The translations under genes were made by a program, and so were the position numbers. Positions 27,838-54,417 of a stretch of DNA of 64,000 nt are shown in pieces. Source of the DNA: Minisyncoccota bacterium. Its GTDB lineage: Bacteria > Patescibacteriota > Minisyncoccia > SW-4-49-11. Under the pieces are notes generated by a model, which searched no databases, had not been told where the DNA came from, and worked only from the letters and a program-made list of their open reading frames with translations. The DNA lies in contig JALQTA010000001.1 of assembly GCA_023264145.1 (NCBI GenBank), positions 15,465 to 79,464 of the forward strand. Direction: 5' to 3'. Position 1 is the stretch's first letter. Each line of letters begins with the position of its first letter.

Positions 27838-27844
27838 TTAATAT

Positions 27845-33593: not shown

Positions 33594-34334
33594 ATGGAAT
33601 CCAATATGACTCTTGGTGACATTGTTGCAAAAATACAAAGAAAGTTCAATACGGTGGTGATTATTACCTTGACATTCGTGTTAGTGGGGGTAGGTATTAC
33701 TCTTATTCTCCCGAAACAATATCGGGCTGAATCCCAATTAGTAGTTATTCAAAAAGCAAATCCAGGGATAGATTCATATACCGCTCAGAGATCTATTGAC
33801 TCTAATGTTGATTTGCTTATTAACTTAGCCTATACCGATGCATTTTTCAGCAGTTTTACGGTAGATAATGTTGAAATTCGTAATGCCTTCCCTGAAAATT
33901 TAAAAGATAGGAGAACTCAATTTGCAAGAAATGTAGTGGTACAGGCAAGAGGAACGGGATTTATTTCAGTCTTAACCTATGATGGTTCATCAGAATTGGC
34001 CTTGACCATGAATCAAGTTGCAGTTAATAAACTTATTGACCAAGCAAAAGTTCTTTTAGGAGATACTGCCAATATACAGATAGTCAATCAGCCATCACTC
34101 TTTGATGGTGTTGGGCGGCCAGATATCACCATTAATCTATTAGGTTCTGCAATAGTAGGATTAGCAGTAGCTATAGGATATGTACTATCGCGTAAAGAAA
34201 ATACTCTTGTGTATGATTTTGGGATAGATGAAGAAGGAGGATCTTCGTCAGAGGAGTTTAATTCTTTCAATACGACCTCAGTTATACCTCCATCTATTAC
34301 TACTGATACTGAATATGATTCTCAATCCTTCTAG
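33594..34334 (+). CDS. Wzz-like polysaccharide chain-length determinant protein
   Basis: An N-terminal TM (after FNTVVIITLTFVLVG) followed by the LPKQYRAESQLVV motif region, and a C-terminal TM. Confidence 0.45.
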   Translation: MESNMTLGDIVAKIQRKFNTVVIITLTFVLVGVGITLILPKQYRAESQLVVIQKANPGIDSYTAQRSIDSNVDLLINLAYTDAFFSSFTVDNVEIRNAFPENLKDRRTQFARNVVVQARGTGFISVLTYDGSSELALTMNQVAVNKLIDQAKVLLGDTANIQIVNQPSLFDGVGRPDITINLLGSAIVGLAVAIGYVLSRKENTLVYDFGIDEEGGSSSEEFNSFNTTSVIPPSITTDTEYDSQSF

Positions 34335-35727
34335 GGTTATTTTATTGGTTGGAGCATTAGTGCTTTTTTCTGGAGTTATGCTTTTAGATAGAGGTATTGC
34401 CCCCTTTATTTTACTTGCCGCATTATTGATATTTGTGAGTATTATACGACTTTCAGTTCCTGCAGTATTTTATACGTTACTTATTATTCGTCCCTCCTTG
34501 GATATATTTGGTGCTTATGTTTTTGTCATATCTTCTAATTTACCAAGTATTAATATCGCAGGAATTGTTGCTCTTATATCAATTATTGTCAGTATTATTT
34601 TAATATATCGTTCTCAGAAAAGAATATTAACTATTCCTCTCAGTGCTTTATTTATATTTCTATTCTTTATATATGGGATATTTACCGTCTTATCATTGCA
34701 TCCTATCGCCTCTATCAATGAATTAATACGGGTATCCTCCTTTTTATTGATGTACTTTACTGGATATGTGGTAATTAATACAAAATATGATCTTACTCGG
34801 ATTATATGGGCTATTATTATATCATCCATTATACCAACTATAGTTGGGTATATCCAACTATTTAATGGGGCTGGTCTTTATACCAATCCCGGATTTGAGA
34901 ATCGTATAGCCGGTACCTTTGGCCATCCAAATGTATTGGGGTATTTTTTATTAATTATTATTGCGTTAATTGTCTATCTTTATTTTGAAAACCCAGCTCG
35001 GAAACCTTTATATAAGACATTATTAATCACCTATGGCGTTCTATTAGGGGTGCTTTTATTATCTACTTATACTCGAGGTGCTTGGATTGGGATAAGTTTA
35101 TTATTATTAGGAGTGAGTATTATTCGATATACCAAAAAAACACTGATTATAAGTGCGATTGCTATTCCTATTATGGCAATAAGTGCATTTAGCTATACGT
35201 GGGTACAAACGAATATTATTTATGATTTAACTCCATTAGAAGATATTTCAGTTATATCGAGAGTGGTGGGGCTTTTTAATGGGGATCCAAGTGACTCTAT
35301 TATATGGAGACAAATTATGTGGTCAGATATGTATAATAAGGCTTTAACCCGTCCTATTATTGGATTTGGGGCGGGGACTATCGAAATTATCGTAGAGGAA
35401 GTGAGGGGAGTTTCATTGGGAGCTCTAGAAGCTCATAATGATTATATTAAAATTTTGGTTGAAATGGGAGTAATTGGATTATTCTCGTATATTACATTTA
35501 TATTAGCGCTACTCTATAGTTTATTAATACGTATTCAATCAAAGCAGGATACCTTATTTTTGATTATGACTTTCTTGGTTTTAGCTATTTATTTATCAAG
35601 TATTTGGGATAATTTATTAAGACAAACAGCAGTAATGTGGATATTTTTTGGCTTATTAGGTGTGGTAATGAAATATCATACTATTCGTGCAAAAGATCCT
35701 TCAAAAGATTCTCCCACTGAGGAGTGA
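34315..35727 (+). CDS. O-antigen ligase / Wzy-family polysaccharide polymerase-like membrane protein
   Basis: 10-12 TM helices with a large loop containing RGAWIG and, further downstream, HNDYI motifs. The start is moved to MILNPS to limit overlap. Confidence 0.5.
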   Translation: MILNPSRVILLVGALVLFSGVMLLDRGIAPFILLAALLIFVSIIRLSVPAVFYTLLIIRPSLDIFGAYVFVISSNLPSINIAGIVALISIIVSIILIYRSQKRILTIPLSALFIFLFFIYGIFTVLSLHPIASINELIRVSSFLLMYFTGYVVINTKYDLTRIIWAIIISSIIPTIVGYIQLFNGAGLYTNPGFENRIAGTFGHPNVLGYFLLIIIALIVYLYFENPARKPLYKTLLITYGVLLGVLLLSTYTRGAWIGISLLLLGVSIIRYTKKTLIISAIAIPIMAISAFSYTWVQTNIIYDLTPLEDISVISRVVGLFNGDPSDSIIWRQIMWSDMYNKALTRPIIGFGAGTIEIIVEEVRGVSLGALEAHNDYIKILVEMGVIGLFSYITFILALLYSLLIRIQSKQDTLFLIMTFLVLAIYLSSIWDNLLRQTAVMWIFFGLLGVVMKYHTIRAKDPSKDSPTEE

Positions 35728-36940
35728 TAGTTTTTTGAGCAAAGTCTTGTATACGCAGAGAAGATTTTTGATGATATGAATTATATATTTCATCATTACA
35801 TAATATCAATTCCATAGCAGATACGAGATACTGTTCAGACTGAGATAAGGAATAGGGTTTTTCTGGGAGAGTATTATGATCAAGGGGAATTAATATTCCA
35901 TATTCTGCTTGTTCTATTATGGAGGTTTTGACGGTAATATCGCTACTTGGAGCCAATAATTCTCGTGGACCAGAATCAGAATCCGAGGCAATAACAGGAG
36001 TTCCAATGATTAAGCTTTCAACAAGTACATTGGGAAGCCCTTCATAATGAGAAGGAAGAATAAGTACTTTAGCCTGAGCAATAAATGCAAATGGGTTTTT
36101 CTGGAATCCCAGAAAGTATATATCATAATTATCCTTAATATCTTGATTATCCCATACGGTATATACCTTGAGTCCTAAACTTCTTGCAAAATTAAGATGA
36201 TATTCTCTCAAGGGGCCATCCCCCAAAATAATATACCGAATATTAGGATGAGTTTTTTTGAGACTATGAAATGCAAGAATACTATGCCAAAATCCTTTTT
36301 GACGAGATAATCTTCCGGTTGATATACATACAGGGTTTTGATATAGAGAAGCATATTCACCAATATCCTGATGAGCTAATGCTCTAATACCATCTATATC
36401 AAAAGGATTGAGAATAACTTGAATCTTATCTTTAGGGAGGCCTAATTGAATCAGATTGGCTTCAATTCCCCGAGAGACCGCAATAATACGAGTATGAAAT
36501 CGCTCTAATAATTTGACAAGACCTAAATAAATAGTACTTCTAAAGAATACTCCTTCCTGAGTATAATTAGAGGTGAGATGGCTATGAATAACTCCAATAG
36601 ACAAATGGTGAGAGAATGGTTTTGCTAAAATATTCACAAAATCAGCTCTTTCAAGATGACTAATACATAGATGTATCTGATTTTGCTTAAGATATTGAGC
36701 TAGCTTAAAGGGAAGAAGAGGAAATTGTAATAATTTTTTGAATTTAGAGGATTGTCCTTTGATATCTGATAAAAAATGTATCGAGAAATTATCGGGCATA
36801 ATATAGGAATCTTGATGTTCAAGGGCAATAATATGGACTGTATATCCTAAATCTTGGAACATCTGAGCTTGAGTAATAGCTATTTTCTGAGCTCCACCTC
36901 CTTCAAAATTGGTAATTAAGATAGCAATAGATTGTTTCAT
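35681..36940 (-). CDS. family 1 (GT4-type) glycosyltransferase
   Basis: GRLSRQKGF and LPSHYEGLPNVLVESLIIGTPVIASD GT1 C-terminal motifs. The start is set at MKQSIAIL (ATG at 36938..36940). Confidence 0.65.
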   Translation of the reverse strand: MKQSIAILITNFEGGGAQKIAITQAQMFQDLGYTVHIIALEHQDSYIMPDNFSIHFLSDIKGQSSKFKKLLQFPLLPFKLAQYLKQNQIHLCISHLERADFVNILAKPFSHHLSIGVIHSHLTSNYTQEGVFFRSTIYLGLVKLLERFHTRIIAVSRGIEANLIQLGLPKDKIQVILNPFDIDGIRALAHQDIGEYASLYQNPVCISTGRLSRQKGFWHSILAFHSLKKTHPNIRYIILGDGPLREYHLNFARSLGLKVYTVWDNQDIKDNYDIYFLGFQKNPFAFIAQAKVLILPSHYEGLPNVLVESLIIGTPVIASDSDSGPRELLAPSSDITVKTSIIEQAEYGILIPLDHNTLPEKPYSLSQSEQYLVSAMELILCNDEIYNSYHQKSSLRIQDFAQKTITPQWENLLKDLLHE

Positions 36941-37011
36941 ATAGCTATAGTATAACGTATTTTTAGAATATTGACGATAGTAGGATATATACATAACCTT
37001 GTTGTATACTA

Positions 37012-37040
37012 TTGACAAAATGGCTATTTTATGCTATTAT
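37012..37040 (+). promoter_or_regulatory. island promoter copy 1: TTGACAAAATGGCTATTTTATGCTATTAT (-35 TTGACA, 17-nt spacer, -10 TATTAT)
   Basis: Read directly from the sequence; 28 nt upstream of the island gene A start. Confidence 0.55.
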
Positions 37041-37068
37041 CACACAGAACCTTATGCCTCGGAGGCAT

Positions 37069-37992
37069 ATGTACATTCTCAAACTGATGATGGGGACTCT
37101 GGTCCTCATCGCAACCGCCATCCCGGTTATGGCACAGGGCCTTCCCGTTACCTGCAAGCAGGTGGGAGACAAGGCCGTCATCTCCACCCCCGGTTTTTCG
37201 GGGTCGTGGATGAGCTTCGGATCAGGGCGCTTGAGCCCAGCCTCGACGGAGACGGTAATTCCGAACTTTCGGAATGCACCGTTTCCCTTGGTCGGGAACA
37301 AGGCTGTGAATCCTGGTGATCCGCAGTCTTGGTTCAAGATCGAGAGGGTGACTCCCGAACAAAAGCGTGCCTCCGGGTGTGGCTTTGTTCAGGCAGGGGT
37401 CCTGATCCCGGGAAGCAACTGGACTCCGGTGCAGATCGCGAATACCCGTTCGCAACTTTCTGCGCAGGGAGGAGTGCTCGGAAATCCCGCTACCTTTGCC
37501 GTGGTTCCTGTCCCCGCCGTAGGACCGGCGACCCGTTCCAGGGTGATTATCTCTCGTAAGGGAGATGCCATCACCTTGGAACTGCCTCCTTCCACGGAGA
37601 GCAGTCAATGGGTAGTTCAGCGGGGACAGTCCGGCCCCATTGTTGGACGACCCACCACGGGTATCGAGGGGCTTCATCGCACCTCGACCTTCCTCAGCGC
37701 CTATCAGCGCTTTGAGGCGGTGGTGAAGACCAATCGTGGCTGGCCTGTCACCGTGCCCCTGACTCTTCAGGGTCTGCGGATTACTGGCACCTTGCCAGCA
37801 GATTGGCATTCCTTCGCCATTGTGGCAAGGGGATCAGGGCAGGACGCCTGGTTGCAGGTGGGCCCCGCCATTGAGCAGGGGCTTACCCAGCATGATGGTG
37901 TCCCAGATGCTTTCTGGGGAGGGCGGACGGACAATTCGTTGTTTACCGTTCCTGGGAACAACCCCAACCCGGGGTATTTCTGGACCCGCTGA
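37069..37992 (+). CDS. GC-rich island gene A: secreted protein of unknown function (307 aa, signal peptide MYILKLMMGTLVLIATAIPVMAQG)
   Basis: RBS GGAGG 4 nt upstream of the ATG at 37069 and a clean signal peptide. About 60% GC against a ~30% background. The track ORF 37012..37992 is trimmed to the RBS-supported start. Confidence 0.55.
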   Translation: MYILKLMMGTLVLIATAIPVMAQGLPVTCKQVGDKAVISTPGFSGSWMSFGSGRLSPASTETVIPNFRNAPFPLVGNKAVNPGDPQSWFKIERVTPEQKRASGCGFVQAGVLIPGSNWTPVQIANTRSQLSAQGGVLGNPATFAVVPVPAVGPATRSRVIISRKGDAITLELPPSTESSQWVVQRGQSGPIVGRPTTGIEGLHRTSTFLSAYQRFEAVVKTNRGWPVTVPLTLQGLRITGTLPADWHSFAIVARGSGQDAWLQVGPAIEQGLTQHDGVPDAFWGGRTDNSLFTVPGNNPNPGYFWTR

Positions 37993-38010
37993 TCTTCCGT
38001 TAACAAGTTC

Positions 38011-38045
38011 GCCGCCAGCACCCAGTGCTGGCGGCTTTTTCTTTT
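38011..38045 (+). terminator. intrinsic terminator GCCGCCAGCAC-cca-GTGCTGGCGGC followed by TTTTTCTTTT
   Basis: 11-bp perfect GC-rich stem plus a T-run, 19 nt after the gene A stop. Confidence 0.6.
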
Positions 38046-38072
38046 GACTTGATATATAGGGAAATATATGGT
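38044..38072 (+). promoter_or_regulatory. island promoter for gene B: TTGACT-17-TATGGT (weaker variant)
   Basis: TTGACT at 38044..38049, a 17-nt spacer and TATGGT at 38067..38072; it abuts the preceding terminator T-run. Confidence 0.35.
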
Positions 38073-38106
38073 ATGGTGAAATAGCAAATTATGAGGTTTT
38101 CCTCTC

Positions 38107-38547
38107 ATGCAAAGGCTCATCTGTTCTTTGGTGACTGTGGTTTCATTGTCCGTTCCTTCATCTGCTTTGGCTCAGTATTACCCATATCAAGGAGGTGGTA
38201 CTCAATATGGCCATCAACAGAAAGATCCTGACTATCTGGAACTCCGGTTTCGAGATGGTCGGCGGGTAGTTACATACCCTGTTTCTGGTACTCGACATGA
38301 AGATGTTGCTGCTCAGCACGGTATTGCCTACTGTGAGCAATATTGGAGAGAAGTGGTACCTCCTCCAGGATTCGGATACGCTGCAGTGATCTCTCAGGGG
38401 GCTTGTAGGGGTAGGCAGATCAATCACCAACCGATTAATCGGTACCCCGATCACAAACATCAACGTCGATGGGTAAATCCTGTTCCAAGGCAACATCTTC
38501 CCATTTTGAATGGAGGAAGTAACTGTCTGCTTTTCTGTTTTAACTAG
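38107..38547 (+). CDS. GC-rich island gene B: small secreted Cys-containing protein, paralog of gene C; the 3' end may read through past the original stop
   Basis: RBS GAGG 10 nt upstream of the ATG. Signal peptide MQRLICSLVTVVSLSVPSSALAQ. It shares a ...V/I..P.RPGFGYAA.I.Q C-terminal block with gene C. About 45 codons after that block are lower-GC and have no counterpart in gene C. Confidence 0.45.
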   Translation: MQRLICSLVTVVSLSVPSSALAQYYPYQGGGTQYGHQQKDPDYLELRFRDGRRVVTYPVSGTRHEDVAAQHGIAYCEQYWREVVPPPGFGYAAVISQGACRGRQINHQPINRYPDHKHQRRWVNPVPRQHLPILNGGSNCLLFCFN

Positions 38548-38589
38548 ATGTGTTTCTGTCCCATACAACCGTTTTCTTAATCTCTTCGC

Positions 38590-38623
38590 GCCGGTAGTGG
38601 TAAACTGCCGGTATTTTTTTTTG
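38590..38623 (+). terminator. hairpin (G)CCGGTAG-tggtaaa-CTGCCGG(T) followed by TATTTTTTTTTT
   Basis: 7-8 bp stem with one G-U pair and a 10-T run, 43 nt after the gene B stop. Confidence 0.45.
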
Positions 38624-38633
38624 CTCTAACCTC

Positions 38634-38662
38634 TTGACAAAATGTATAAAATATGCTATAGT
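38634..38662 (+). promoter_or_regulatory. island promoter copy 2: TTGACAAAATGTATAAAATATGCTATAGT (-35 TTGACA, 17-nt spacer, -10 TATAGT)
   Basis: Read directly from the sequence; 27 nt upstream of the gene C start. Confidence 0.55.
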
Positions 38663-38689
38663 GCCATCGTCAACACTTGGAGCAATCCA

Positions 38690-38998
38690 ATGAAGTGCCT
38701 TTCCAGCTTCGCCAGCGTTCTGCTGGCTTCCACCTTGCCCCTCCTCGCCGTGGCTCCCGCCATGGCAACCCCTCAGCCCCAGGAGGGTCGGGGGATGCTC
38801 CCCGATCTCATTCTTCTCAAGTTCGCCGATGGGCGAATGGAGGAGGTGTCCAATCCCTCCCGTGCTGCGGGGGGGCGGCCCCACGAAGTGGTGGCCGCTG
38901 AAAAGGGGATTCCGACGGCCTGCCAAGCGTGGCAGGAAATCCCGTCTCGGCCAGGATTCGGATACGCTGCACAGATCACCCAGATCTGTGGTAACTGA
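38690..38998 (+). CDS. GC-rich island gene C: small secreted protein (102 aa), paralog of gene B
   Basis: RBS GGAG 7 nt upstream of the ATG at 38690. Signal peptide MKCLSSFASVLLASTLPLLAVAPAMA. It ends ...RPGFGYAAQITQICGN. The track ORF 38642..38998 is trimmed. Confidence 0.5.
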   Translation: MKCLSSFASVLLASTLPLLAVAPAMATPQPQEGRGMLPDLILLKFADGRMEEVSNPSRAAGGRPHEVVAAEKGIPTACQAWQEIPSRPGFGYAAQITQICGN

Positions 38999-39021
38999 GC
39001 CTGCTCAGCAATCGTCCAATC

Positions 39022-39049
39022 GCCCCCTGCACTGCAGGGGGCTTTTTTT
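39022..39049 (+). terminator. intrinsic terminator GCCCCCTG-cactg-CAGGGGGC followed by TTTTTTT
   Basis: 8-bp perfect GC stem plus a 7-T run, 23 nt after the gene C stop. Confidence 0.6.
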
Positions 39050-39085
39050 ATTCTCTTATGATACTATTTCAGATGTTGTTATCTA

Positions 39086-39114
39086 TTGACAAAATAGCTA
39101 TTATATGCTATAAT
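39086..39114 (+). promoter_or_regulatory. island promoter copy 3: TTGACAAAATAGCTATTATATGCTATAAT (-35 TTGACA, 17-nt spacer, -10 TATAAT)
   Basis: Perfect -35 and -10 hexamers with a 17-nt spacer; 35 nt upstream of the gene D start. Confidence 0.6.
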
Positions 39115-39149
39115 CTCAACGTTCTGTACATTCTCAACGGAGTTTTCTT

Positions 39150-40280
39150 ATGAAACTTCTCAAACAACTTCTCCTGCCCATTGCAGCATGTGCTGCGGTG
39201 TTTGGAGGAATGCCTGTGGAAGCGCAGGTTGAATCGCTCTCCCCTCGAGAGCAACTCCAGCAGCTGCGTGCAATGCGCAAGGCTGCTGAAGCTCGCAATG
39301 CGAATGCGGGTGAGGTGCAACAGGTGTCCCAACCTGTGAATCCTCCCGTCCAGCAAGCTCCACCGGGTCCACCGCCCGTAATGGCGGCAATTCCGGCCCC
39401 CGCTCCCGTGCTGGCCACCCCTCCTCAAAAGGAGCAGGGGCCTTCCACTTCTGGTATCGTGGTCCCTCCTCGGGACTCGATTCCCCAGCAGGGAGAGGGG
39501 CAGTGGAAGCCCCTCCGAGTTCACACCGAATTCCGTTCCCTTCCGCGGAATACGGCTTTCGATGTGAAGGCTGAGCTGGGCACCCAGAATGGGTGGATGT
39601 TTGGGGCTCAGTTCGTGACTCAGTCTGGATCTTTCACAGGTGAGAACCTGAAGGAGATCTGGAAGGGGTCCTATACGGATACCCGGGCAGAGTTCTGGGG
39701 AGGCCGTCATTGGTCCTCCCAGGATTCTAAAACCCGGTGGTCGGTGAACGCCTTTGTGCGGCAGCTGACACATACCGATTCTGGTGAAGGCAGGAGTCGT
39801 CCGGGCAATCCGGATTCCTACACCTACACCTGGAGGAATCCGGTGAAGCCCCTCACCCAAGTGGGTGTGAGAGCCAGGGTCGAGCATGACCTCATCCGGA
39901 CGGAGAGTCAACAGCTCACCGTTCACCTCAAGGGTGAGGTGGCTGCCACTGTCTCAGGACAGTCTGGCTTGGCCTACGATGTCCAGACAGGCGTCTGGTA
40001 TCGGACGGCACGGATCGAAGCCTATGCTGAAGCCGGTGTGAATAATACCGGCGGGTACGCTAATGGTTACGGCCGTTATTACCTGACTAAGGGTGGTCAG
40101 CTCAAGCCCTTCGTGGAGGTGCGGGGTGAGGTTGGTACTGGCTACCACAACGCCCAAGTGGGCGCTGGTGTCCAGGTGGGGATCGGCAAGAACGCTTACG
40201 CCGAAGGTGTGCTTGGCTACAACGCTGGCACCTCTGGCAATGGCATGGCTGTCATCACCCGGTTCGGTTTCCGATTCTGA
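39150..40280 (+). CDS. GC-rich island gene D: secreted Pro/Gln-rich-linker protein with a beta-barrel-OMP-like C-terminus (...AVITRFGFRF)
   Basis: RBS GGAG upstream and signal peptide MKLLKQLLLPIAACAAVFGGMPVEAQ. A PxxP/Q-rich spacer is followed by about 250 aa of Gly/Tyr/Thr-rich sequence with alternating hydrophobics. It ends in the aromatic C-terminal Phe motif typical of outer-membrane beta-barrels. Confidence 0.55.
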   Translation: MKLLKQLLLPIAACAAVFGGMPVEAQVESLSPREQLQQLRAMRKAAEARNANAGEVQQVSQPVNPPVQQAPPGPPPVMAAIPAPAPVLATPPQKEQGPSTSGIVVPPRDSIPQQGEGQWKPLRVHTEFRSLPRNTAFDVKAELGTQNGWMFGAQFVTQSGSFTGENLKEIWKGSYTDTRAEFWGGRHWSSQDSKTRWSVNAFVRQLTHTDSGEGRSRPGNPDSYTYTWRNPVKPLTQVGVRARVEHDLIRTESQQLTVHLKGEVAATVSGQSGLAYDVQTGVWYRTARIEAYAEAGVNNTGGYANGYGRYYLTKGGQLKPFVEVRGEVGTGYHNAQVGAGVQVGIGKNAYAEGVLGYNAGTSGNGMAVITRFGFRF

Positions 40281-40364
40281 CGCAAAATAGAAACGATAGT
40301 AGCTATCTAATCGGAGTAATCTGAGAAGAGAAGTTGCCTTGACCGTTTCTGGTTTTGAATATAT

Positions 40365-40392
40365 CCCTCGTTGTTCGCAGCGAGGGTTTTTT
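40365..40392 (+). terminator. hairpin CCCTCG-ttgttcgcag-CGAGGG followed by TTTTTTATTT
   Basis: 6-bp stem (extendable with one mismatch) plus a T-run, 85 nt after the gene D stop. Confidence 0.45.
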
Positions 40393-40467
40393 ATTTGTTG
40401 AAAAGGTTAGACAGAGAGGGGATAATATGATATTGTTAATATAGATTATCTTATTGTTAATAAGTCT

Positions 40468-41649
40468 ATGAAAATTGCTTTTATAGGGCAAAAAGGGATT
40501 CCTGCTCTTGGTGGTGGTGGAGTTGAAAATTATGTTGACCATATTGCAGTAAGACTTGCACAGCGAGGACATGAAGTTATTGTTTACACTCGTAAAGCAT
40601 ATGCTCCGGAGGGTATGTATAAACATGTCAAGGTTATCGCGACATCTGGTATTCCTACCAAGAGTTTAGATGCGATTACGCATACCTTTACGGCATTATG
40701 GAAGAGTTTTTTTATCTCTGATTTAGACGTTTTGCATGTCAATTCAGTAGGGCCTGCTTTATTGATTCCTTTTGCACGGTTTGGATTTTTGTTAAAATAT
40801 TTAGTTACGGGTTCATATACAAAGGTCGTATTTACCTTTCATAGTGCTGATTGGTATCATGGGAAATGGAATTTATTTGCAAAATCTATGCTCAAATTAG
40901 GAGCCTGGACTGGTTGTGTCTTTGCGGATGAAGTGATTACGGTATCAAAGAGTTTACGGTATCTTGCCTATAAACAATTTGATGTACGAGCTACCTATAT
41001 CCCTAATGGTACGGTATTTAATCATATTACCTCGGATTCAGAGTTAGCTCAATTTGGACTCAAAAAACGAGGGTATATTGTTTTTATTGCCCGCCTCATT
41101 CATCATAAAAATGCTCATATTTTGATACAGGCCTATCAAAAAATGGCAAAAAAATATGGAAAAAAGCTTGTGATTGTAGGAGGAAATTCCCATACTCCTG
41201 AATATGAGAAATATCTGCATGAATTAGCTCAAGGGGATAAGAATATTATTTTCACAGGGCATCAATCAGGGAGAACGTTAAAGCAATTATTTGCCAATGC
41301 GGCTATTTATGTATTACCCTCATCGTCTGAAGGCTTATCTATTTCTCTCTTGGAAGCTGCAAGTTATGGAGTACCTGTGGTTGTCTCTAATATACGAGAA
41401 AACCGTGAAATTGTAGGAGATCTTGGACATATTGCGGAAGTTGATAGTGTGGTCTCATTAGCTCATACGATTGAAGGAGTTTTGATGGATTATCGGGGAG
41501 CCTTAGAATTAGCAGATATGTTGCAGGCAGAAATTAAATATCATTATGCCTGGAATAATATTGTAAGAGCTTTAGAAAATGTATATAAAAGAGATTCAAA
41601 TCAATATAAAGGAGCTAGTATACAAGTTACTCCAGCTTTGAAATATTAA
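40468..41649 (+). CDS. family 1 (GT4-type) glycosyltransferase
   Basis: N-terminal IPALGGGGVENYV and C-terminal LPSSSEGLSISLLEAASYGVPVV motifs. Confidence 0.65.
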   Translation: MKIAFIGQKGIPALGGGGVENYVDHIAVRLAQRGHEVIVYTRKAYAPEGMYKHVKVIATSGIPTKSLDAITHTFTALWKSFFISDLDVLHVNSVGPALLIPFARFGFLLKYLVTGSYTKVVFTFHSADWYHGKWNLFAKSMLKLGAWTGCVFADEVITVSKSLRYLAYKQFDVRATYIPNGTVFNHITSDSELAQFGLKKRGYIVFIARLIHHKNAHILIQAYQKMAKKYGKKLVIVGGNSHTPEYEKYLHELAQGDKNIIFTGHQSGRTLKQLFANAAIYVLPSSSEGLSISLLEAASYGVPVVVSNIRENREIVGDLGHIAEVDSVVSLAHTIEGVLMDYRGALELADMLQAEIKYHYAWNNIVRALENVYKRDSNQYKGASIQVTPALKY

Positions 41650-41653
41650 TAGT

Positions 41654-42940
41654 ATGGCTCGATTACTTGCTAAAATGATTCCGCTATTCAAATGGACTAT
41701 TATTACTTTGATAGGGTTAGTTTTGGTGATAGTCATATGGGGATGGGGAGCGTATGGAAAAGAAATTCAATTAGTACAAGCATTATCTCAGGATACTGAG
41801 ACCACCTATTTAGTTTTATTTCAAAACACTTTAGAATTACGTCCTACTGGTGGATTTGTAGGGAATTTTGCAGAGTTAACCATAGAAAAGGGGAGAATAA
41901 AAAATTATACGATTTATAATACAAATGCCTTTGATTTTGGAAAGCCAGGTATTGATTCCCCTCAGCCATTTAAGGATATGCTTGGGGTACAACAAATTCA
42001 GATGAGAGATGGGAATTGGTCTCCTCATTTCCCAGCTACGGCTGAGCAGATGATTTCTCTTTACGAATTACAAGGGGGAGAAAAAGATATTACGGGGGTA
42101 ATAGCAGTTAATGCTTTGCTGTTACCAGAAGTATTGAGAATTATGGGGCCAGTGACGGTGGATGGGATAGATGAAGAGTTGACAGCAGATAATGTCTTAT
42201 TAACGATTCAATATGAGTTGAATTTTGGATTTATGGAGAGGGGAGTAGATAGGCGTGATCGAAAAGAACCAATTCGGGATCTTGCAGCTCAATTAGAAAG
42301 TAAAATATCTACAACCTCACCTATGAATTTGTATCGGTTAGCAACAATGTTAGTAGATCAAGCGGATAAAAAACAGATTTTAATGTGGAGTAAGGATGAT
42401 AGGGTACAAAAAAGAATTGATAATTTAGGATGGAATGGAGTAATCGATACTGACACGGTAGGAGATTATTTTATGTTAGTGGATGCTAATCTAGGCGCTC
42501 TTAAAACAGATTATTATATGGAGAGAGATATTATGAAAACGGTTGATGAGTGTGGAGATAAGTTATGCTCTAAAATACGTATTATCTATCGTAATACCGC
42601 CAAAACAGCATCAGAATTAAATAATGACTATAAATCATATAGTCGAGTCATATTACCAAAAGATGCCTTTATTACGAATATTACCGGGATAGAATCTCGT
42701 CCAATACCTATAGATTATAGTACTGCCTATAATAAAAAATTTGCAGGATTTGAGATTAATGTTCCCTTTAATGGCCAGAGAGAGGTTATTGTGGAATATA
42801 CGATGCCTCAACTGAAGGAATATACCTTGGACATTCAAAAACAGTCAGGAATTGTAGGATATAATTTTGAATTAGAGTATCGACCAGGGAATAAAAAGGA
42901 GAAGGTATTTATTGATTCCGATTGGAGTTGGAAAGAATAA
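41654..42940 (+). CDS. DUF4012-domain membrane-anchored protein
   Basis: N-terminal TM, then the LELRPTGGFVGNFAEL motif that I recognise as the DUF4012 hallmark; commonly linked to surface-polysaccharide loci. Confidence 0.45.
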   Translation: MARLLAKMIPLFKWTIITLIGLVLVIVIWGWGAYGKEIQLVQALSQDTETTYLVLFQNTLELRPTGGFVGNFAELTIEKGRIKNYTIYNTNAFDFGKPGIDSPQPFKDMLGVQQIQMRDGNWSPHFPATAEQMISLYELQGGEKDITGVIAVNALLLPEVLRIMGPVTVDGIDEELTADNVLLTIQYELNFGFMERGVDRRDRKEPIRDLAAQLESKISTTSPMNLYRLATMLVDQADKKQILMWSKDDRVQKRIDNLGWNGVIDTDTVGDYFMLVDANLGALKTDYYMERDIMKTVDECGDKLCSKIRIIYRNTAKTASELNNDYKSYSRVILPKDAFITNITGIESRPIPIDYSTAYNKKFAGFEINVPFNGQREVIVEYTMPQLKEYTLDIQKQSGIVGYNFELEYRPGNKKEKVFIDSDWSWKE

Positions 42941-42942
42941 TA

Positions 42943-45069
42943 TTATTCAAAATGAATGTTTTCTTCAAAATAGGATAATCGAGATTTCAGTTCAGGATAT
43001 TGATTAAGGGTATAATCTTGAGATAACACTTCTTGAGATAATGATTTTGTCTGTACAATAATATCGTGATTCAACAGAGCTTCCATGCTAATATCAGAGA
43101 GTCCGGATTGATTGGAGCCAATAAATTGACCAGGTCCTCGTATTGCTAAATCTTTTTCTGCTAGTTCAAATCCACTAGTGGCTTCTTCGATAGCCTTTAG
43201 CCTTTGATTCATAGAGACTTCTTGATCACTTGTTTCGAATAAAAAGCAAAATGATTGATGTTCTCCTCGTCCTACTCTTCCTCTGAATTGATGTAATTGA
43301 GCGAGTCCAAATCTTTCAGCTCCTTCTACCACTATAATACTTGCATTCGGAATATCAATACCAACTTCAATGACTGAAGTTGCAACCAGAATATCAAATT
43401 TTCTCTGTTTAAAGTCCTGGATAATGCGGTCTTTTTCGGCAGTTTTCATTTTTCCATGCATCATTTGTATACGTAAATCAGGAAAGATATTGGTGGATAA
43501 ATCGTGAAAACTTTCTTCCACGGATCGTATATCTGATTCTTGATCAGCCTCAATTTTGGGACATACTACAAAGGCTTGTCTTCCTGATTGAATATGCTTA
43601 CGAATAAATGTATAGGCTTCAGTTCTTTTAGATGGAGGCACTAACTTTGTTTTAATGGCTTTTCTTCCTGCAGGATATTCATTTAATAAAGAAACATCCA
43701 AATCTCCATATATACTTAATGCTAAGGTTCTCGGGATGGGGGTGGCTGTCATACTTAAAAGATGAGACATAGTTTCTTTATTACTATGGGAATGTTTATT
43801 CATCATGGTTTGTAATTCAGAGCGTTGTTTTACTCCAAATCGATGTTGTTCATCAACAATAGTTAAAGCAAGATTATGATACTCAAGGCTATCTCGGATT
43901 ACGCTATGAGTTCCGATAATAATATGTACTTGGCCTCTCGATATTTTTTTTAATAACTCTTTTTTAGGAATAGTGATCCAATAATCAAGATGAGGATCAG
44001 TAGAGATGCGAGACTCTTTGGCAGTAATAAGTGCAATTACAGGGAGATTGGGGATATGAGCGGTGAGTTTGGTAATACTCTCAAAGTGCTGGGTGGCTAA
44101 TATTTCAGTAGGAGCCATTAATACAGATTGATAGCCATTATAATGGGTATTAATCATAGCAATAGTAGCTACAATGGTCTTTCCGGTTCCTACATCTCCC
44201 TCTAAGAGTCTATTCATCGGAGAAGGTTTGGAGGTATCATGTAGAATATCTTGAATTGCAGTATGTTGGGCTTGAGTAAGATGAAAAGGAAGATCTTCGA
44301 TAATAGTTTTAATAGTATCATGATGTATCGTAAGATTAGGAGCGTATTTGGATTGAAACATCATTTTTTGTTTTGCAATGTATAATTGCATAATAAAGGC
44401 TTCTTCAAAAATTAATCGGTTCTTTGCCAGGTGTATTTGTTCAACGGTTTGAGGATAATGTAAATAGCGTATGGTTTCATTAATACTGAGAATATTTGCT
44501 TTCCTGAGTATCCATTCGGGTAAAGTTTCAGGTAAGATACCAAATTGTTTGAGCGCTAGATCAATACGATAACGGATCATTTTAGAACTAATACCAGCAG
44601 TTTCAGGATATATGGGGACTAATCTATGGGAATGTAATAATATTTTATGAGGTAATATTCTTTCAAAACTCATCTGGGTGAGGGGTGTTTTGGCCGTATG
44701 TTTAATAATAGCTGATAGAGCATAGGTTGAATTAACCTGAAGAGATTCAAAAAGAAGTTTTTGATTAAATAGGGTAATAGTCAGAGTGTCACTAGTATCT
44801 TGAATGGTAATTTCGGCGATGGTTAATTTGCGTCCTCGTAGACGAGTTTGTTTTTTATGAATAATCGTGACTTCAAATACAACTGCTTGCCCATCAGGAA
44901 TGGTATTAATTTGACTGAGAGTTTGAAGATGAGTATAATTAACAAATTTTTTAGGAGGATACAGAAGTAATTGGGCTAAGGTGAATATACCTAATTTATG
45001 CAAACTATGCACAAGACGGGGGGTAGGTTTTGGTTTTAGATTTGTAATTGAGGTATAGAGAACATTCAT
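42943..45069 (-). CDS. recG: ATP-dependent DNA helicase RecG
   Basis: 708 aa with an N-terminal wedge/OB region. Helicase motifs are DVGTGKT (Walker A), DEQHRFG (DEQH) and QLHQFRGRVGRG. Confidence 0.85.
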   Translation of the reverse strand: MNVLYTSITNLKPKPTPRLVHSLHKLGIFTLAQLLLYPPKKFVNYTHLQTLSQINTIPDGQAVVFEVTIIHKKQTRLRGRKLTIAEITIQDTSDTLTITLFNQKLLFESLQVNSTYALSAIIKHTAKTPLTQMSFERILPHKILLHSHRLVPIYPETAGISSKMIRYRIDLALKQFGILPETLPEWILRKANILSINETIRYLHYPQTVEQIHLAKNRLIFEEAFIMQLYIAKQKMMFQSKYAPNLTIHHDTIKTIIEDLPFHLTQAQHTAIQDILHDTSKPSPMNRLLEGDVGTGKTIVATIAMINTHYNGYQSVLMAPTEILATQHFESITKLTAHIPNLPVIALITAKESRISTDPHLDYWITIPKKELLKKISRGQVHIIIGTHSVIRDSLEYHNLALTIVDEQHRFGVKQRSELQTMMNKHSHSNKETMSHLLSMTATPIPRTLALSIYGDLDVSLLNEYPAGRKAIKTKLVPPSKRTEAYTFIRKHIQSGRQAFVVCPKIEADQESDIRSVEESFHDLSTNIFPDLRIQMMHGKMKTAEKDRIIQDFKQRKFDILVATSVIEVGIDIPNASIIVVEGAERFGLAQLHQFRGRVGRGEHQSFCFLFETSDQEVSMNQRLKAIEEATSGFELAEKDLAIRGPGQFIGSNQSGLSDISMEALLNHDIIVQTKSLSQEVLSQDYTLNQYPELKSRLSYFEENIHFE

Positions 45070-45080
45070 AATAACACTAT

Positions 45081-45157
45081 TGGTGTACCTAAGAGGATTT
45101 GAACCTCTGGCCTCAGGTTCCGCAAACCTGCGCTCTATCCAGCTGAGCTATAGGTAC
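45081..45157 (-). tRNA. tRNA-Arg (anticodon read as GCG; CCA encoded)
   Basis: Hand-folded: GTACCTA-TA-GCTC-AGCTGGATA-GAGC-G-CAGGT-TTGCGGA-ACCTG-AGGCC-AGAGG-TTCAAAT-CCTCT-TAGGTAC-A-CCA. The D-arm is identical to enterobacterial tRNA-Arg. The track ORF 45080..45289(+) is its antisense. Confidence 0.65.
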
Positions 45158-45158
45158 A

Positions 45159-45635
45159 TTAAATCTTCAAAAAATGATCTAGGGTGTCAAAAAAAGATTC
45201 TTTCCCGTCTTCACGAGGAATATATTGAGATAATATTTCAGCAAGTTCTTCAGGATCTTCTTTACCTACTGGTATACGAGTATGAGTAAGAATACCAACT
45301 GTCATGTAAAGAGAGATAAATTGTACTTCACCTCGTTTAAAGACACCAAATGATTCGATATCTTGATATTGAAATGTCTTTTTTTGATCGAGCGTTATCC
45401 CCGTTGTGGTAATATCAATGGTAATAATCTGAGGTTCTTTATTGGAAATAATGAGGGTCAAAATAAATGTCAGTAATATCACAATGAACATCATGGGGGA
45501 TTGCTCTATAACAGCATAAGCAAGAAGGATAATTGCAATGATTCCTGCTAAGATGTACCAGGTAGGTGTTTTTTCATATCTATCAAATTCAGGTGATTGA
45601 TAGCTATATACTAAATGTGCTTTTTGTGTAGCCAT
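45159..45635 (-). CDS. hypothetical membrane protein (two TM helices plus a small soluble domain)
   Basis: ORF with two hydrophobic helices (ILAGIIAIILLAYAVI, MMFIVILLTFILTLII); no family recognised. Confidence 0.3.
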   Translation of the reverse strand: MATQKAHLVYSYQSPEFDRYEKTPTWYILAGIIAIILLAYAVIEQSPMMFIVILLTFILTLIISNKEPQIITIDITTTGITLDQKKTFQYQDIESFGVFKRGEVQFISLYMTVGILTHTRIPVGKEDPEELAEILSQYIPREDGKESFFDTLDHFLKI

Positions 45636-45689
45636 ATATTTTTGTATTATCTTGTGATTATATCATAAAATCGAGAAATACAAAATCGG

Positions 45690-46382
45690 CTATTTTTTTT
45701 GATTTTGCTTCCATTCATGAATGCGTTGATGATTCCCAGAAAGTAATATATCGGGTACAGTCCAGGTATTCGGGGCATCTTCTATAATAAGATGGGGATT
45801 GTCGGGAGTAAATTCTGCGGGTCGTGAGTATTGAGGATACTCTTTTGTATTAGTATATGTCCATGATTCTTCAGATAAGGATTCTTCATTTCCTAATACA
45901 TCAGGAATATGGCGAGATATAGCATCTAGCATGGTCAATGCCGGTAATTCACCCCCGGTTAATATAAATTGCCCAATAGAGAGTGATTCATGGATTAAAT
46001 ATTCTTCTACACGAGCATCAATTCCTTCATATCTGCCGCAAATAAAAATAATATGATTATATTCTTTGCCTAAAGAAATTGCTTTCTCTTGATTAAATAT
46101 AGGAGCTCCTGCTTTTGTAAGAATAATGTGTTTATTGGTATCTGGATATTCTTTGAGAATATGCTCTAAGGTATAATAAATAGGTTCTATTTGTAATATC
46201 ATACCAGCGCCACCACCAAATGGTGCGTCATCTACTTTATTATGACTATCGTGACTATAATCTCGTATATTGTGAATACCAATTTGAATACTTTTCTTAA
46301 TCGTATGAGCTCTCCCAATTACCCCACTATTAACATAAGGTTCTATCACTGAGGGAAAGAGGGTTAGAATGTCAAATCGCAT
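45690..46382 (-). CDS. trmD: tRNA (guanine37-N1)-methyltransferase
   Basis: MRFDILTLFP N-terminus, and GRYEGIDARV and LTGGELPA motifs. Confidence 0.85.
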   Translation of the reverse strand: MRFDILTLFPSVIEPYVNSGVIGRAHTIKKSIQIGIHNIRDYSHDSHNKVDDAPFGGGAGMILQIEPIYYTLEHILKEYPDTNKHIILTKAGAPIFNQEKAISLGKEYNHIIFICGRYEGIDARVEEYLIHESLSIGQFILTGGELPALTMLDAISRHIPDVLGNEESLSEESWTYTNTKEYPQYSRPAEFTPDNPHLIIEDAPNTWTVPDILLSGNHQRIHEWKQNQKK

Positions 46383-46394
46383 ATATCTATATGA

Positions 46395-46718
46395 TTATAG
46401 GTCTAAATCAGCAACTGCTTTATCAATATCTTCAGTGTGATTTGATCGTGTTTCATTGCGTACACCTTGTTCTGGTTCTAAAATTTTTAAATTAACTCTG
46501 GCATTATTTCGAGCTCCTACAATACGAAGTAGAGATCGAATTGCTTTTGCTGTAGATCCAGATTTTCCAATAACATATCCCATATCACTTGGATTAACTT
46601 GAAGGGTAATCAATACACCCATCTCATCCACCGTTCTTTCTATAAGAACATCATTCGGATTATCTACAATTGATTTAACAATATAGGTAACAAATTCTTT
46701 ATCTCCTGCCTTTTCCAT
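46395..46718 (-). CDS. KH-domain RNA-binding protein (KhpA/YlqC-like)
   Basis: VIGKSGSTAKAIRSLL GxxG KH motif. It is adjacent to trmD, as in many ribosomal-maturation operons. Confidence 0.55.
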   Translation of the reverse strand: MEKAGDKEFVTYIVKSIVDNPNDVLIERTVDEMGVLITLQVNPSDMGYVIGKSGSTAKAIRSLLRIVGARNNARVNLKILEPEQGVRNETRSNHTEDIDKAVADLDL

Positions 46719-46801
46719 TTCTGTGTTTTTATCTGTTAATCAAAGTTATATAAACTTTATATCCATAGTATATCATATTTAATGTTAGATACAAGCATAT
46801 C

Positions 46802-47509
46802 TTAATGAGCTAAAATAACCGCATGTATATTACGAAAACCTTTTTTATAGAGAGCTGAGGCGGCTTCATTTATTGTGGATAACGTAGTCGTTACATCATC
46901 AATCAGAATAATAATATCATTTTGGGTTGGTTTAGAGTGAGCAATGAAGGCTTCTTTGACATTGGCTATTCTTTCTGATTTATCATGAATTTTCATCTGT
47001 TGGGGAGTGTTTTTTATACGTTCTAAATCAGTATATACAGGTAATCTTAATTGGCTAGCAATATATTGAGCTAATAAATCGGACTGATTATATGTTCTAA
47101 AGAGAAGTCTTTTAGGGTGTAGGGGGATAGGACAAAGAATAATATGAGATTGTAGACGTATTGCCTGAGTTATGGCTCTGAGCATGAGTCCACCTAAAGG
47201 ATTAGATAGTTGAGGAAGATTCTTATATTTAAGATAATGAATACTTTTGCGAATAATGGGATCATTGAATAATGTGCATGATAATACGGTAATGAGATGA
47301 GAGTTTTCTAAAGGATATTGTATTTCAGTAAAGGCTGTTGGCCTAAATAAAGGAGGCTGAGTAATATGACTATTTATCCATAATTTGGGTTTATGAGGGA
47401 TTTTGAGTATGCATGTGTCGCATAAATTATCATCACTCAATGTATGGCAGATAATACATTGATTAGGGATGCAGATATTTTTGAGAAGTTGAAGGAGTGA
47501 GTATTGCAT
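46802..47509 (-). CDS. comFC: competence protein ComFC-like phosphoribosyltransferase
   Basis: N-terminal four-Cys ribbon (CIICH...CDTC) and a C-terminal PRTase motif IILIDDVTTTLST. Confidence 0.6.
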   Translation of the reverse strand: MQYSLLQLLKNICIPNQCIICHTLSDDNLCDTCILKIPHKPKLWINSHITQPPLFRPTAFTEIQYPLENSHLITVLSCTLFNDPIIRKSIHYLKYKNLPQLSNPLGGLMLRAITQAIRLQSHIILCPIPLHPKRLLFRTYNQSDLLAQYIASQLRLPVYTDLERIKNTPQQMKIHDKSERIANVKEAFIAHSKPTQNDIIILIDDVTTTLSTINEAASALYKKGFRNIHAVILAH

Positions 47510-47566
47510 ACTTGTGAATGGTATGATACTATCATACTATAGAAATACGTAAAAAATAAAAATACC

Positions 47567-48640
47567 TTGATGTTAGGAATTGGGTCAAAAAATTCATTTG
47601 GAATTGATATCGGGACACAAACGATAAAAATTTCTGAAGTTAATAAAAAAAACGGACGGATATTGGTTGAAAATTATGCGATATGGAGTAATGATATCAC
47701 CAATATTATTCAAGAAAAAAGTGGGGAGCATGCTCTTTCAGTGGAGAAAATTGTATCTATCATCCAGATGATGCTGAATAGTGCTCAGATGAATATCAAA
47801 GAGGCTTATATGGCAATTCCATCATATTTAGCTTTCTCCACGGTGATTGAAATGCCTGCCCTGTCTGCAGAAGAACTTATCACCGCAGTCCCATTAGAGG
47901 CGAAGCAACATATTCCTGTTCCCTTTGATACGGTACAATTAGATTGGGTTAATTTAGGTAAGAAAGCCTCAAAAGACACCTTAAATATTTTACTTATTGC
48001 AATTCCTAATAATGTCATTACTAAGTATATGGAAGTGAGTCAGGCATTAGGAATTACCATAAAAGGATTTGAACTTGATGTTTTCTCTGTAATACGATCA
48101 ATTGATTTGCCACCTAAGCAAGTATGTATTGTGGATATGGGAGCACGTACAAGTACTGTAAGTATTATTAATCCTGATCAACAATTACAAGTCTTACAAT
48201 CATTTGACTTTGGAGGAAATCATATTACAGAAGCGATTTCTCAGCTAAAGCATATCTCTTTAATAGAAGCTGATTTGTTGAAAAAAAATAATGGTATCTC
48301 AGGCTCTGATACTGAAGTTTCGGCTGCAGTTCAAACACGAATAAGGGGATTTATTACCAATGAAGTTGTTCGAATGATTCGTCAAACACAGGAAAGAAGT
48401 GACTTTGTGATTGAGGATATTATTTTGCTCGGTGGTTTTGCAAAAATGTCTGGAATACAGGAGTTTGTTTCAATGATTATAAAAAATAATTTTAATACCG
48501 ATAAACCAATAGCTGTTTCTATGGCAATTCCTACTCCTAATCTAACTATAAAGGGAGTTAAAGATGCAACGATAATACACTCAACCTGGCAAGATCTTGT
48601 ATTATCAATCGGTATTGGCTTAAAAGATTACAATATATAA
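47567..48640 (+). CDS. pilM: type IV pilus assembly protein PilM (actin-like ATPase)
   Basis: N-terminal FGIDIGTQTIKISEV and an actin/FtsA-like fold; first gene of the pilMNO block. Confidence 0.65.
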   Translation: MMLGIGSKNSFGIDIGTQTIKISEVNKKNGRILVENYAIWSNDITNIIQEKSGEHALSVEKIVSIIQMMLNSAQMNIKEAYMAIPSYLAFSTVIEMPALSAEELITAVPLEAKQHIPVPFDTVQLDWVNLGKKASKDTLNILLIAIPNNVITKYMEVSQALGITIKGFELDVFSVIRSIDLPPKQVCIVDMGARTSTVSIINPDQQLQVLQSFDFGGNHITEAISQLKHISLIEADLLKKNNGISGSDTEVSAAVQTRIRGFITNEVVRMIRQTQERSDFVIEDIILLGGFAKMSGIQEFVSMIIKNNFNTDKPIAVSMAIPTPNLTIKGVKDATIIHSTWQDLVLSIGIGLKDYNI

Positions 48641-48641
48641 T

Positions 48642-49175: not shown

Positions 49176-49180
49176 TATCT

Positions 49181-49750: not shown

Positions 49751-49903
49751 ACAATATCATAAAATATCAAAAAACTATTGTAAGATTAAGCTGTTTTATT
49801 ATTACATTATACTTTTTATATACATTAGGGATGATTATTTTTGGAGATATAATTATGAATACAGGGTCTCCTATACCAGATATATCTATTATTAGTAAAT
49901 ATT

Positions 49904-51634: not shown

Positions 51635-51683
51635 TCAAATATATAAAAGTATGATACTATCAATATATGATAAATAAATACCT

Positions 51684-52061: not shown

Positions 52062-52082
52062 ATCTAATTAATAAAAATCAAT

Positions 52083-53156: not shown

Positions 53157-53165
53157 AACATTATT

Positions 53166-54383: not shown

Positions 54384-54417
54384 TATAACGTAATATGAAG
54401 AAGGGGGGTGTAAATAA

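Follow-up and report, generated by a model that had tools for sequence, protein, structure and literature searches.

A GC-rich, strain-variable locus of predicted surface proteins in AT-rich freshwater Candidatus Paceibacteria

How does a genome that is otherwise AT-rich come to hold a sharply bounded run of GC-rich genes, and what keeps them GC-rich? The question is raised by a 64,000-nucleotide stretch of DNA (hereafter the window) from a Minisyncoccota bacterium (assembly GCA_023264145.1, contig JALQTA010000001.1, positions 15,465 to 79,464), in which four open reading frames (ORFs), A to D, lie between two genes for GT4-family glycosyltransferases. A preliminary description of the window had proposed that this island is a novel acquired surface module, a synthetic cassette, or an assembly chimera. 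We find that it is probably a native, hypervariable surface-protein locus of freshwater Candidatus Paceibacteria (Parcubacteria, Candidate Phyla Radiation or CPR), whose messages are likely to have been selected for dense base pairing.

The GC enrichment is abrupt and is limited to the translated parts of the island. Positions 37069-40280 of the window have 47-64% GC, in a genome of 31-39% GC. In 300-nt windows, GC is 0.27-0.38 up to 36900, 0.43-0.64 across 37050-40350, and 0.32-0.41 beyond; outside the island, every 1-kb block of the window is at or below 0.39. The GC jump reported earlier is thus borne out by sliding-window computation. GC at the first, second and third codon positions (GC1/GC2/GC3) is 0.59/0.54/0.66 in gene A, 0.66/0.53/0.71 in gene C (overall 0.63, the most GC-rich slot), and 0.65/0.50/0.62 in gene D. 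Gene B has 0.61/0.44/0.36, with an overall GC of 0.47 and third positions near those of the host. The remaining 59 ORFs of the window have a GC3 of 0.15-0.30. The claimed switch to G/C-ending codons therefore holds for A, C, and D, but not for B. The island does have the atypical composition expected of an acquired genomic island (GC 0.47-0.63 vs. 0.31-0.39; GC3 0.62-0.71 vs. 0.15-0.30). Its spacers, however, reach only 0.32-0.45 GC (slot means 0.35-0.41), although this count includes the GC-rich stems of the terminators, and the 84-nt 3' untranslated region (UTR) of D, which is transcribed, is AT-rich. GC-rich ORFs set within AT-rich, native expression signals are a real and unusual architecture, as the preliminary description had recognized.

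Codon usage in A, C, and D is distinct from that of the rest of the window. A-ending codons are avoided (0.11 vs. 0.36 elsewhere), TTA, ATA, and CTA are absent, and AAA accounts for 0.16 of lysine codons (0.76 elsewhere). Long antisense ORFs, previously taken as a hallmark of high GC, do exist (37222-37809 and 39108-39926). They run in register with the sense codons and are by-products of the avoidance of TTA, CTA, and TCA; we therefore reject them as genes. Avoidance of nuclease sites was considered as a cause of the A-depletion, but k-mer depletion returned only the usual TAG/CTAG and a CpG deficit, and no candidate motif. In the A, C, and D ORFs of six genomes, CTAG occurs at 0.08 of expectation, and CpG trinucleotides (GCG, ACG, CGC, CGA, CGT) at 0.47-0.66 of the base-composition expectation. 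A CpG deficit thus exists inside a GC-rich bacterial coding region.

The island is conserved in position and layout across a clade. At least 10 related Candidatus Paceibacteria genomes carry it at the same site, in the order Wzz-Wzy-GT4, A-B-C-D, GT4-DUF4012-RecG. Synteny and slot-specific GC are common to the window and relatives L002-L016 and L020 (L numbers are our handles for related genomes and contigs). The left GT4 gene is syntenic in L002-L015; L020 has a different, plus-strand GT4 gene there. According to GTDB records, the relatives are Candidatus Paceibacteria or Parcubacteria metagenome-assembled genomes (MAGs) from Lake Mendota and Lake Zurich; they were recovered by a profile scan, a single-protein scan of the GTDB genomes having returned none. 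The same four-slot locus is present in many lake metagenomes, where the D proteins diverge by 54-75% in amino acids, and D has about 40 homologs with 53-81% identity. The earlier account had named conserved lineage genes with the same composition in relatives as grounds against its reading. This is what the relatives show, but the compositional anomaly remains real and has to be accounted for. Literature searches turned up no account of this locus, of ORF-limited GC-rich islands, or of outer-membrane protein (OMP)-type barrels in Paceibacteria.

High GC follows the slot rather than the protein family. Mean GC over seven genomes is 0.58 in slot A, 0.42 in B, 0.64 in C, and 0.57 in D. Slot C is always the highest, although its proteins are non-homologous: in L002, L005, L009, and L010 it holds a copy of the N-terminal domain of A' (the common allelic class of slot A), and in L008 and L011 a third family. 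Furthermore, a paralogous domain has a GC3 of 0.33 where it occurs in B of the window and 0.68 where it occurs in C.

ORFs have been swapped or recombined among strains while promoters, leaders, and flanks stayed in place. Between L005 and L010, synonymous divergence (dS) is 0.004-0.10 in the flanks and 0.35 in D (78% amino acid identity); between L005 and L009, it is about 0.12-0.23 in the flanks and 1.0 in D (63%). Thus, D can be 63-78% identical where the flanks are 93-100% identical. The opposite case is also seen: L014 and L015 have identical D genes between flanks with a dS of 0.07-0.34. Segments of D are shared in mosaic fashion among alleles that otherwise differ. The window and its nearest relative, L011, carry different families in slots B and C, and L020 has the slot order B-C-A-D with a barrel only 28% identical. 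Gene A of the window belongs to one of two deep allelic classes and is 25-28% identical to the A' class. This is what characterizes a replacement-type flexible island: the same site between conserved genes, divergent content, and an allele history decoupled from that of the flanks. Replacement of ORFs between stable promoters and flanks is typical of exposed surface components when selection is diversifying, and the location inside an envelope-glycan cluster fits the reading of a surface-structure island. Taken with the signal peptides and the barrel fold of D, this suggests that the island proteins are surface exposed and diversifying.

The messages of A, C, and D are predicted to fold far better than their protein sequences require. 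When synonymous codons were permuted, with protein, codon usage, and GC held constant, predicted folding z-scores were -6.4 for A, -3.2 for C, and -8.5 for D, compared with -1.3 and -1.9 for flanking genes and +1.8 to -3.6 for 12 unrelated control ORFs of 54-64% GC. The native sequences of A, C, and D are predicted to be 6-10 kcal/mol per 120 nt more stable than their permuted versions, and the z-scores of these slots run overall from -3 to -10. Across six genomes, the mean difference in minimum free energy per 120 nt is -7.6 kcal/mol in A, -6.7 in C, and -8.1 in D, and only -1.4 in B. Dinucleotide shuffles, computed on a sample of the window, give a mean z of -1.75 in the island and -0.24 in the rest (Mann-Whitney p = 7e-7). 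In the six genomes, the sense strand is more stabilized than the antisense strand (-5.95 vs. -4.46; Wilcoxon p = 1.5e-4). Predicted structure is much sparser in the initiation regions of A, C, and D than in the ORF bodies, within which imperfect inverted repeats of 10-20 nt are numerous.

The GC content of the island is at or near compositional equilibrium despite the strong AT bias of the genome. Synonymous changes in D, polarized in eight overlapping trios (dS 0.8-1.3), comprise 191 weak-to-strong (W>S) and 206 strong-to-weak (S>W) changes; in A', the corresponding counts are 555 and 856. We calculate that an island GC3 of 0.6 decaying neutrally toward a genomic equilibrium of about 0.22 would give roughly 5:1 in favor of S>W. 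Ordinary translational selection does not account for this composition and was rejected, because native genes that are presumably highly expressed are AT-rich at third positions (GC3 0.18 in a pilin gene and 0.21 in the ribosomal protein L25 gene of the same window).

We therefore consider what could hold GC high in some slots and not in others. Selection probably favors mRNAs that are densely paired internally in slots A, C, and D, the ones whose promoters match the consensus, with GC-rich codons and amino acids as the likely means to it. The four monocistronic slots for secreted or surface proteins, inside an envelope-glycan cluster (Wzz, Wzy, GT4 ... GT4, DUF4012), would supply abundant exported proteins to a very small, slow-growing cell. 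In that setting, the benefit might be long-lived, nuclease-resistant messages, or a throttled translation coordinated with secretion.

Several points weigh against this reading. The polarization trios overlap, and parsimony loses precision at a dS of about 1. The net S>W flux in A' is modest (1.5:1) and compatible with slow decay. GC1 and GC2, and with them amino acid composition, are shifted too, which either selection on RNA or a DNA-level bias could explain. The folding energies are predictions, and the antisense strand is also stabilized, leaving room for a DNA-level or mutational cause. For one 180-nt segment of D, RNAalifold gave a weak consensus of -15 kcal/mol with a covariation term of -0.98. 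Specific structure is thus not conserved in this segment, and our claim is limited to generic structuredness. Finally, surface exposure and diversifying selection are argued from signal peptides, the barrel fold, and allele replacement rather than from site-wise dN/dS. Even so, the principal alternatives (import, biased conversion, and palindrome mutagenesis) each fail to account for at least two of five observations on GC and structure.

The alternative that survives best is that the GC is historical, stemming either from an ancient horizontal acquisition from a GC-rich donor or from ongoing import of alleles from an unseen GC-rich reservoir (a lineage, phage, or plasmid). We regard this as unlikely. 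Composition is atypical at all three codon positions, alleles do move between genomes, and families A, B, and C have no relatives beyond the clade, all of which speak for an outside source. Yet searches of 5.8 billion and 1.84 billion proteins found no homolog of A-D beyond AT-rich Paceibacteria (in the latter set, the D family amounts to five cluster representatives at 50% identity), and neither a scan of viral contigs nor tblastn against phage and plasmid collections found relatives. All carriers examined are themselves AT-rich. The distant 43%-GC relative L019 has a barrel gene in front of GT4-DUF4012 whose GC3 of 0.36 equals that of its flanks, and another distant barrel gene, on a 30%-GC contig, has a GC3 of 0.30. 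This indicates that the barrel gene is native to the wider group and that its strong GC enrichment is derived in this clade. The net S>W flux in A' would fit decay from a foreign composition, but the near-equal counts in D indicate no amelioration there, and import predicts neither the dependence of GC on slot nor the excess RNA structure.

Signatures of insertion are likewise lacking. Only the four ORFs lie between the GT4 genes, no integrase domain was detected in the neighbors scanned and no repeat borders the island, and the nearest tRNA genes are at 28306 (about 9 kb upstream) and 45081 (about 5 kb downstream). An empty site, with the two GT4 genes adjacent, had been suggested as a check; the site was occupied in all relatives retrieved. 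Thus, mobility genes, a patchy distribution with donor homologs, and amelioration, which would mark an acquired island, were not found. Of the earlier proposal of a novel acquired surface module, the undescribed secreted or surface module stands, while recent acquisition does not.

Quite unlikely, too, is that GC-biased gene conversion at a recombination hot spot raised the GC. The mosaic D alleles and the allelic replacement shown at the locus supply the recombination that it needs, and a shift at all three codon positions with an effect on both strands is as it would predict. A conversion tract should raise GC regardless of coding, however, and here the rise ends at ORF boundaries, with spacers and the D 3' UTR remaining AT-rich. 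Slot B, in mid-tract and equally variable, has near-host GC3 in all seven genomes, and the GT4 gene co-transferred between L014 and L015 (dS 0.011) is not GC-rich. In addition, alleles that diverge strongly are replaced as a whole, so that little heteroduplex remains within ORFs, and a sense-biased excess of RNA structure is not predicted. The effects of bacterial gene conversion on GC3 reported by Lassalle et al. in 2015 are said to be a few percent; GC3 here goes from 0.2 to 0.65.

It is very unlikely that the island is a mutational by-product, in which template switching at quasi-palindromes, or another local error-prone process, generates both diversity and inverted repeats without selection on RNA. 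Such a process could produce hypervariable genes with many imperfect inverted repeats and excess folding on both strands, but it leaves unexplained why the sense strand is significantly more stabilized than the antisense strand, why start regions are less structured than ORF bodies, and why slot B, just as variable, shows no effect. A dN/dS well under 1 also speaks against it. We know of no mechanism that would restrict quasi-palindrome-type mutagenesis to translated DNA.

That the four units are large structured non-coding RNAs, with ORFs that are artefacts of high GC, is extremely improbable, and as a sole function it is effectively refuted. The idea draws on units that stand out as GC-rich from an AT-rich genome and have strong promoters and terminators, on GC that is flat over codon positions, on excess predicted structure, and on the long antisense ORFs. 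But all four ORFs begin with canonical signal peptides behind Shine-Dalgarno sequences, third-position substitutions dominate (dN/dS 0.12-0.4), protein alignments are conserved with codon-sized indels, and D has a confident barrel model. The only Rfam matches in the window are two tRNAs elsewhere, and no conserved consensus structure accompanies this clear coding signature.

An assembly chimera or an engineered cassette, suggested by the sharp compositional boundaries and modular design and by nothing else, can be dismissed as next to impossible, since three other contigs from two assemblers cover both junctions at 99.99-100% identity and the architecture recurs, at 25-45% protein divergence, in more than 10 natural relatives sampled from different lakes in different projects. 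The contigs are ENA k141_409966 (window 35856-38302, 100% identity), the Logan assembly of SRR14560394 (35856-38043, 100%), and ENA k141_310219 (38607-50265, 99.99%). The entire island is also covered in relatives that come from other samples and other assemblers, and the natural occurrence of the locus with divergent D genes in many lake metagenomes likewise disposes of a synthetic origin. The short-read contigs stop within the island, at 38043 (L022), 38302 (L021), and 38607 (L001), where the MAG contig reads through. These ends around slots B and C suggest strain-level heterogeneity or a change in coverage.

With a native, hypervariable locus under selection on its messages as the preferred reading, we turn to its products, which are predicted to be exported. 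Signal peptides on all four proteins, the barrel fold, and beta-sandwich domains, all of them predicted, would be compatible with an exposed envelope location. None of the four matches Pfam, NCBIfam, PHROGs, Rfam, or PDB sequences, in line with the preliminary description, which had recognized none of them. B and C are indeed paralogs (38% identity, E 9e-15). B is a mosaic, with a C-like N-terminal part and a tail resembling the B proteins of relatives. Overall, slots B and C encode small Cys-containing proteins of several domain families that vary by strain. Substitutions in A and D are most frequent at third and least frequent at second codon positions, with dN/dS of 0.12-0.42 (0.12 for A against its L011 counterpart).

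D has the features of an outer-membrane protein. It comprises a signal peptide, a short helix (residues 32-50), a disordered Pro-rich linker of varying length, and a barrel (residues 121-376). The C-terminal 255 residues give a confident all-beta barrel model (pLDDT 85-94), so that the Pro-rich linker and barrel-like terminus noticed earlier are upheld by structure prediction. A Sec signal peptide and a predicted closed antiparallel transmembrane beta-barrel are joined by a terminal-aromatic beta-signal: the protein ends in ...ITRFGFRF-COOH, and the last F is nearly invariant in the family alignment. In the first 60 columns of that alignment, the N-termini of D fall into two unrelated classes, MKLLKQLLLPIAACAAVFGG... 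and M(K)KRTILGLLAFALPLIGAPMGVKAEEL..., which separate L002, L008, L009, L011, and L020 from the window, L012, L014, L005, and L010. These classes are joined to various barrel alleles, that of L020 with its 28% identity among them, which indicates domain-level mosaicism inside one gene.

D resembles the OMPs of diderms, such as FadL/TodX, KdgM/NanC, OmpG, and autotransporter barrels, in its Sec signal peptide and in a terminal ...GFRF that recalls the beta-signal of the beta-barrel assembly machinery (BAM). Its N-terminal helix and linker before the barrel also recall the stalk of the tether-porin OmpM. Unlike these proteins, D lies outside every Pfam and NCBIfam OMP family, has no match among PDB sequences, and has neither an SLH nor an OmpA-like anchor domain. 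Moreover, its host lineage belongs to the CPR, which is considered to be monoderm and to have lost its porins (bioRxiv 10.1101/2021.05.31.446380). The window itself carries a type IV pilus cluster (47567-57670) with PilM, two small ORFs (presumably PilN/O), a T2SSE ATPase (49904-51634), a response regulator, a PilT-like ATPase, PilC, three N-methyl pilin-like genes, and a prepilin peptidase. A secretin (PilQ) was not found in this cluster, as expected for a single-membrane envelope. With the CPR treated as monoderm and a pilus cluster that has no secretin, a conserved barrel with a beta-signal is unexpected.

The barrel could reside in an outer layer of the cell itself or in the membrane of a host. 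A broader possibility, which we put forward tentatively and think on balance doubtful, is that a CPR clade regarded as monoderm has both a BAM-type barrel, serving an unrecognized outer layer of its own or as a nutrient conduit in the outer membrane of a diderm host, and a private "dialect" in which selection keeps these few mRNAs hyper-folded and at roughly 60% GC against a genome-wide GC3 equilibrium of about 22%. If so, both features would be without known counterpart elsewhere, and the dialect would amount to a gene-specific, post-transcriptional expression strategy. A barrel that is variable yet conserved bears on CPR envelope structure and on contact with hosts and phages, and the D family offers a concrete target for questions about the CPR envelope.

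The locus combines features of known kinds, namely a flexible surface island, an OMP-like barrel, and selection on mRNA folding, but its compositional behavior is unusual. Replacement-type flexible islands for O-antigen and other glycans ("metagenomic islands") have reportedly been described by Rodriguez-Valera, Lopez-Perez, and colleagues in SAR11, Prochlorococcus, and Alteromonas. Like these, the present locus has a fixed site, conserved flanks, and strain-variable content; its alleles are exchanged by homologous recombination among envelope-biosynthesis genes, and assemblies break inside it. Flexible surface islands are, however, usually AT-richer than the genome, with enzymes in operons, whereas this locus is far GC-richer, is made up of four monocistronic slots whose private promoters and terminators are conserved, and encodes exported proteins, not glycosyltransferases. 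A sharp compositional break and genes of unrecognized function with surface roles are shared with classical acquired islands. Unlike those, the locus is clade-wide; it lacks an integrase and a tRNA or repeat border, and neither an empty site, a donor, nor amelioration was found.

That bacterial coding regions are selected for local mRNA secondary structure is said to have been reported by Katz and Burge in 2003, and native island ORFs likewise fold better than synonymous permutations. The usual effect differs from the present one, which is several-fold above that of flanking genes or GC-matched control ORFs and is reached by a shift in base composition of about 25 percentage points. A further parallel is with S-layer genes and their long-lived mRNAs, as the island presumably encodes abundant exported envelope proteins behind strong predicted promoters. 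The stability of S-layer mRNA, though, is ascribed to hairpins in the 5' UTR and not to the ORF body. If confirmed, the locus would show, as an unusually clean natural example, how selection on mRNA structure can override the base composition of a genome. An island of high GC in an AT-rich genome is routinely taken as foreign, and the evidence here points to a native locus; this is a caution for detection of horizontal gene transfer based on composition.

Each slot has its own expression signals. The four plus-strand ORFs of the preliminary description were all recovered (Table 1), each with a signal peptide at its N-terminus, a Shine-Dalgarno sequence before the start, as described, and a short AT-rich leader. 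A predicted promoter and intrinsic terminator for each agree with the four separate transcription units proposed, that of B having the weaker promoter.

Table 1. Positions of the island genes, their predicted expression signals, and the flanking anchors in the window
Feature	Position	Strand	Remarks
Left anchor, GT4-family glycosyltransferase	35681..36940	-	Pfam Glycos_transf_1, Glyco_transf_4; AT-rich, GC3 0.23
Slot-A promoter, TTGACA-17-TATTAT, extended -10	37012..37040	+	Slot-specific sequence kept in relatives
Gene A, 307 aa, secreted, signal peptide MYILKLMMGTLVLIATAIPVMAQG	37069..37992	+	ORF; predicted beta-sandwich domains
Intrinsic terminator of A, 11-bp stem, 9 GC pairs, T-run	38011..38035	+	
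Slot-B promoter, TTGATA-17-TATGGT, weaker	38049..38077	+	Kept in relatives
Gene B, 146 aa, small Cys-containing secreted protein	38107..38547	+	ORF, signal peptide
Intrinsic terminator of B	38590..38612	+	
Slot-C promoter, TTGACA-17-TATAGT, extended -10	38634..38662	+	
Gene C, 102 aa, small secreted protein	38690..38998	+	ORF; paralog of N-terminal part of B
Intrinsic terminator of C	39022..39042	+	
Slot-D promoter, TTGACA-17-TATAAT, 12/12, extended -10	39086..39114	+	
Gene D, 376 aa, signal peptide and OMP-type beta-barrel	39150..40280	+	
Intrinsic terminator of D, behind AT-rich 84-nt 3' UTR	40365..40386	+	
Right anchor, AT-rich GT4-family glycosyltransferase, then DUF4012, RecG	40468..41649	+	All relatives

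Between 33 and 44 kb in the window, the top three sigma-70 matches are the promoters of A, C, and D, at 11-12 of 12 consensus positions; that of B matches 9 of 12. The A, C, and D promoters have TTGACAAAAT...TATGCTA in common, and throughout the genomes compared the promoter and leader sequences remain particular to each slot. A scan of metagenomes for the shared promoter motif returned only generic strong promoters of unrelated organisms, none with island proteins. Nor is the locus an integron-type cassette array: it has no integrase, each ORF comes with a promoter and a terminator, and each spacer is particular to its slot rather than a copy of a shared repeat.

The right GT4 gene has a near-consensus promoter, TTGACA-17-TATGCTATTAT, in relatives (L005 11597, L009 11459, L010 11594, L020 9583), and a degraded one in the window (40408-40436). 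The strong extended -10 promoter is thus a type that belongs to the genome at large rather than a peculiarity of the island. Some relatives have an additional AT-rich ORF of 63-75 amino acids, hydrophobic and membrane-like, between D and the right GT4 gene (L005 11349-11555, L009 11190-11417, L020 9324-9515); it is absent from the window, where a 187-nt spacer occupies this place (40281-40467). On the left side, the gene for a Wzy-like O-antigen ligase/polymerase (34228-35727, plus strand) and the left GT4 gene converge with a 3' overlap of 47 nt, which is also present in the gene calls of relatives. Further upstream, positions 26590-28300 hold ordinary cell-division genes, namely those for an M23 peptidase with a long N-terminal coiled coil and a DivIC-like septation protein, together with a tRNA-Gln on the opposite strand.

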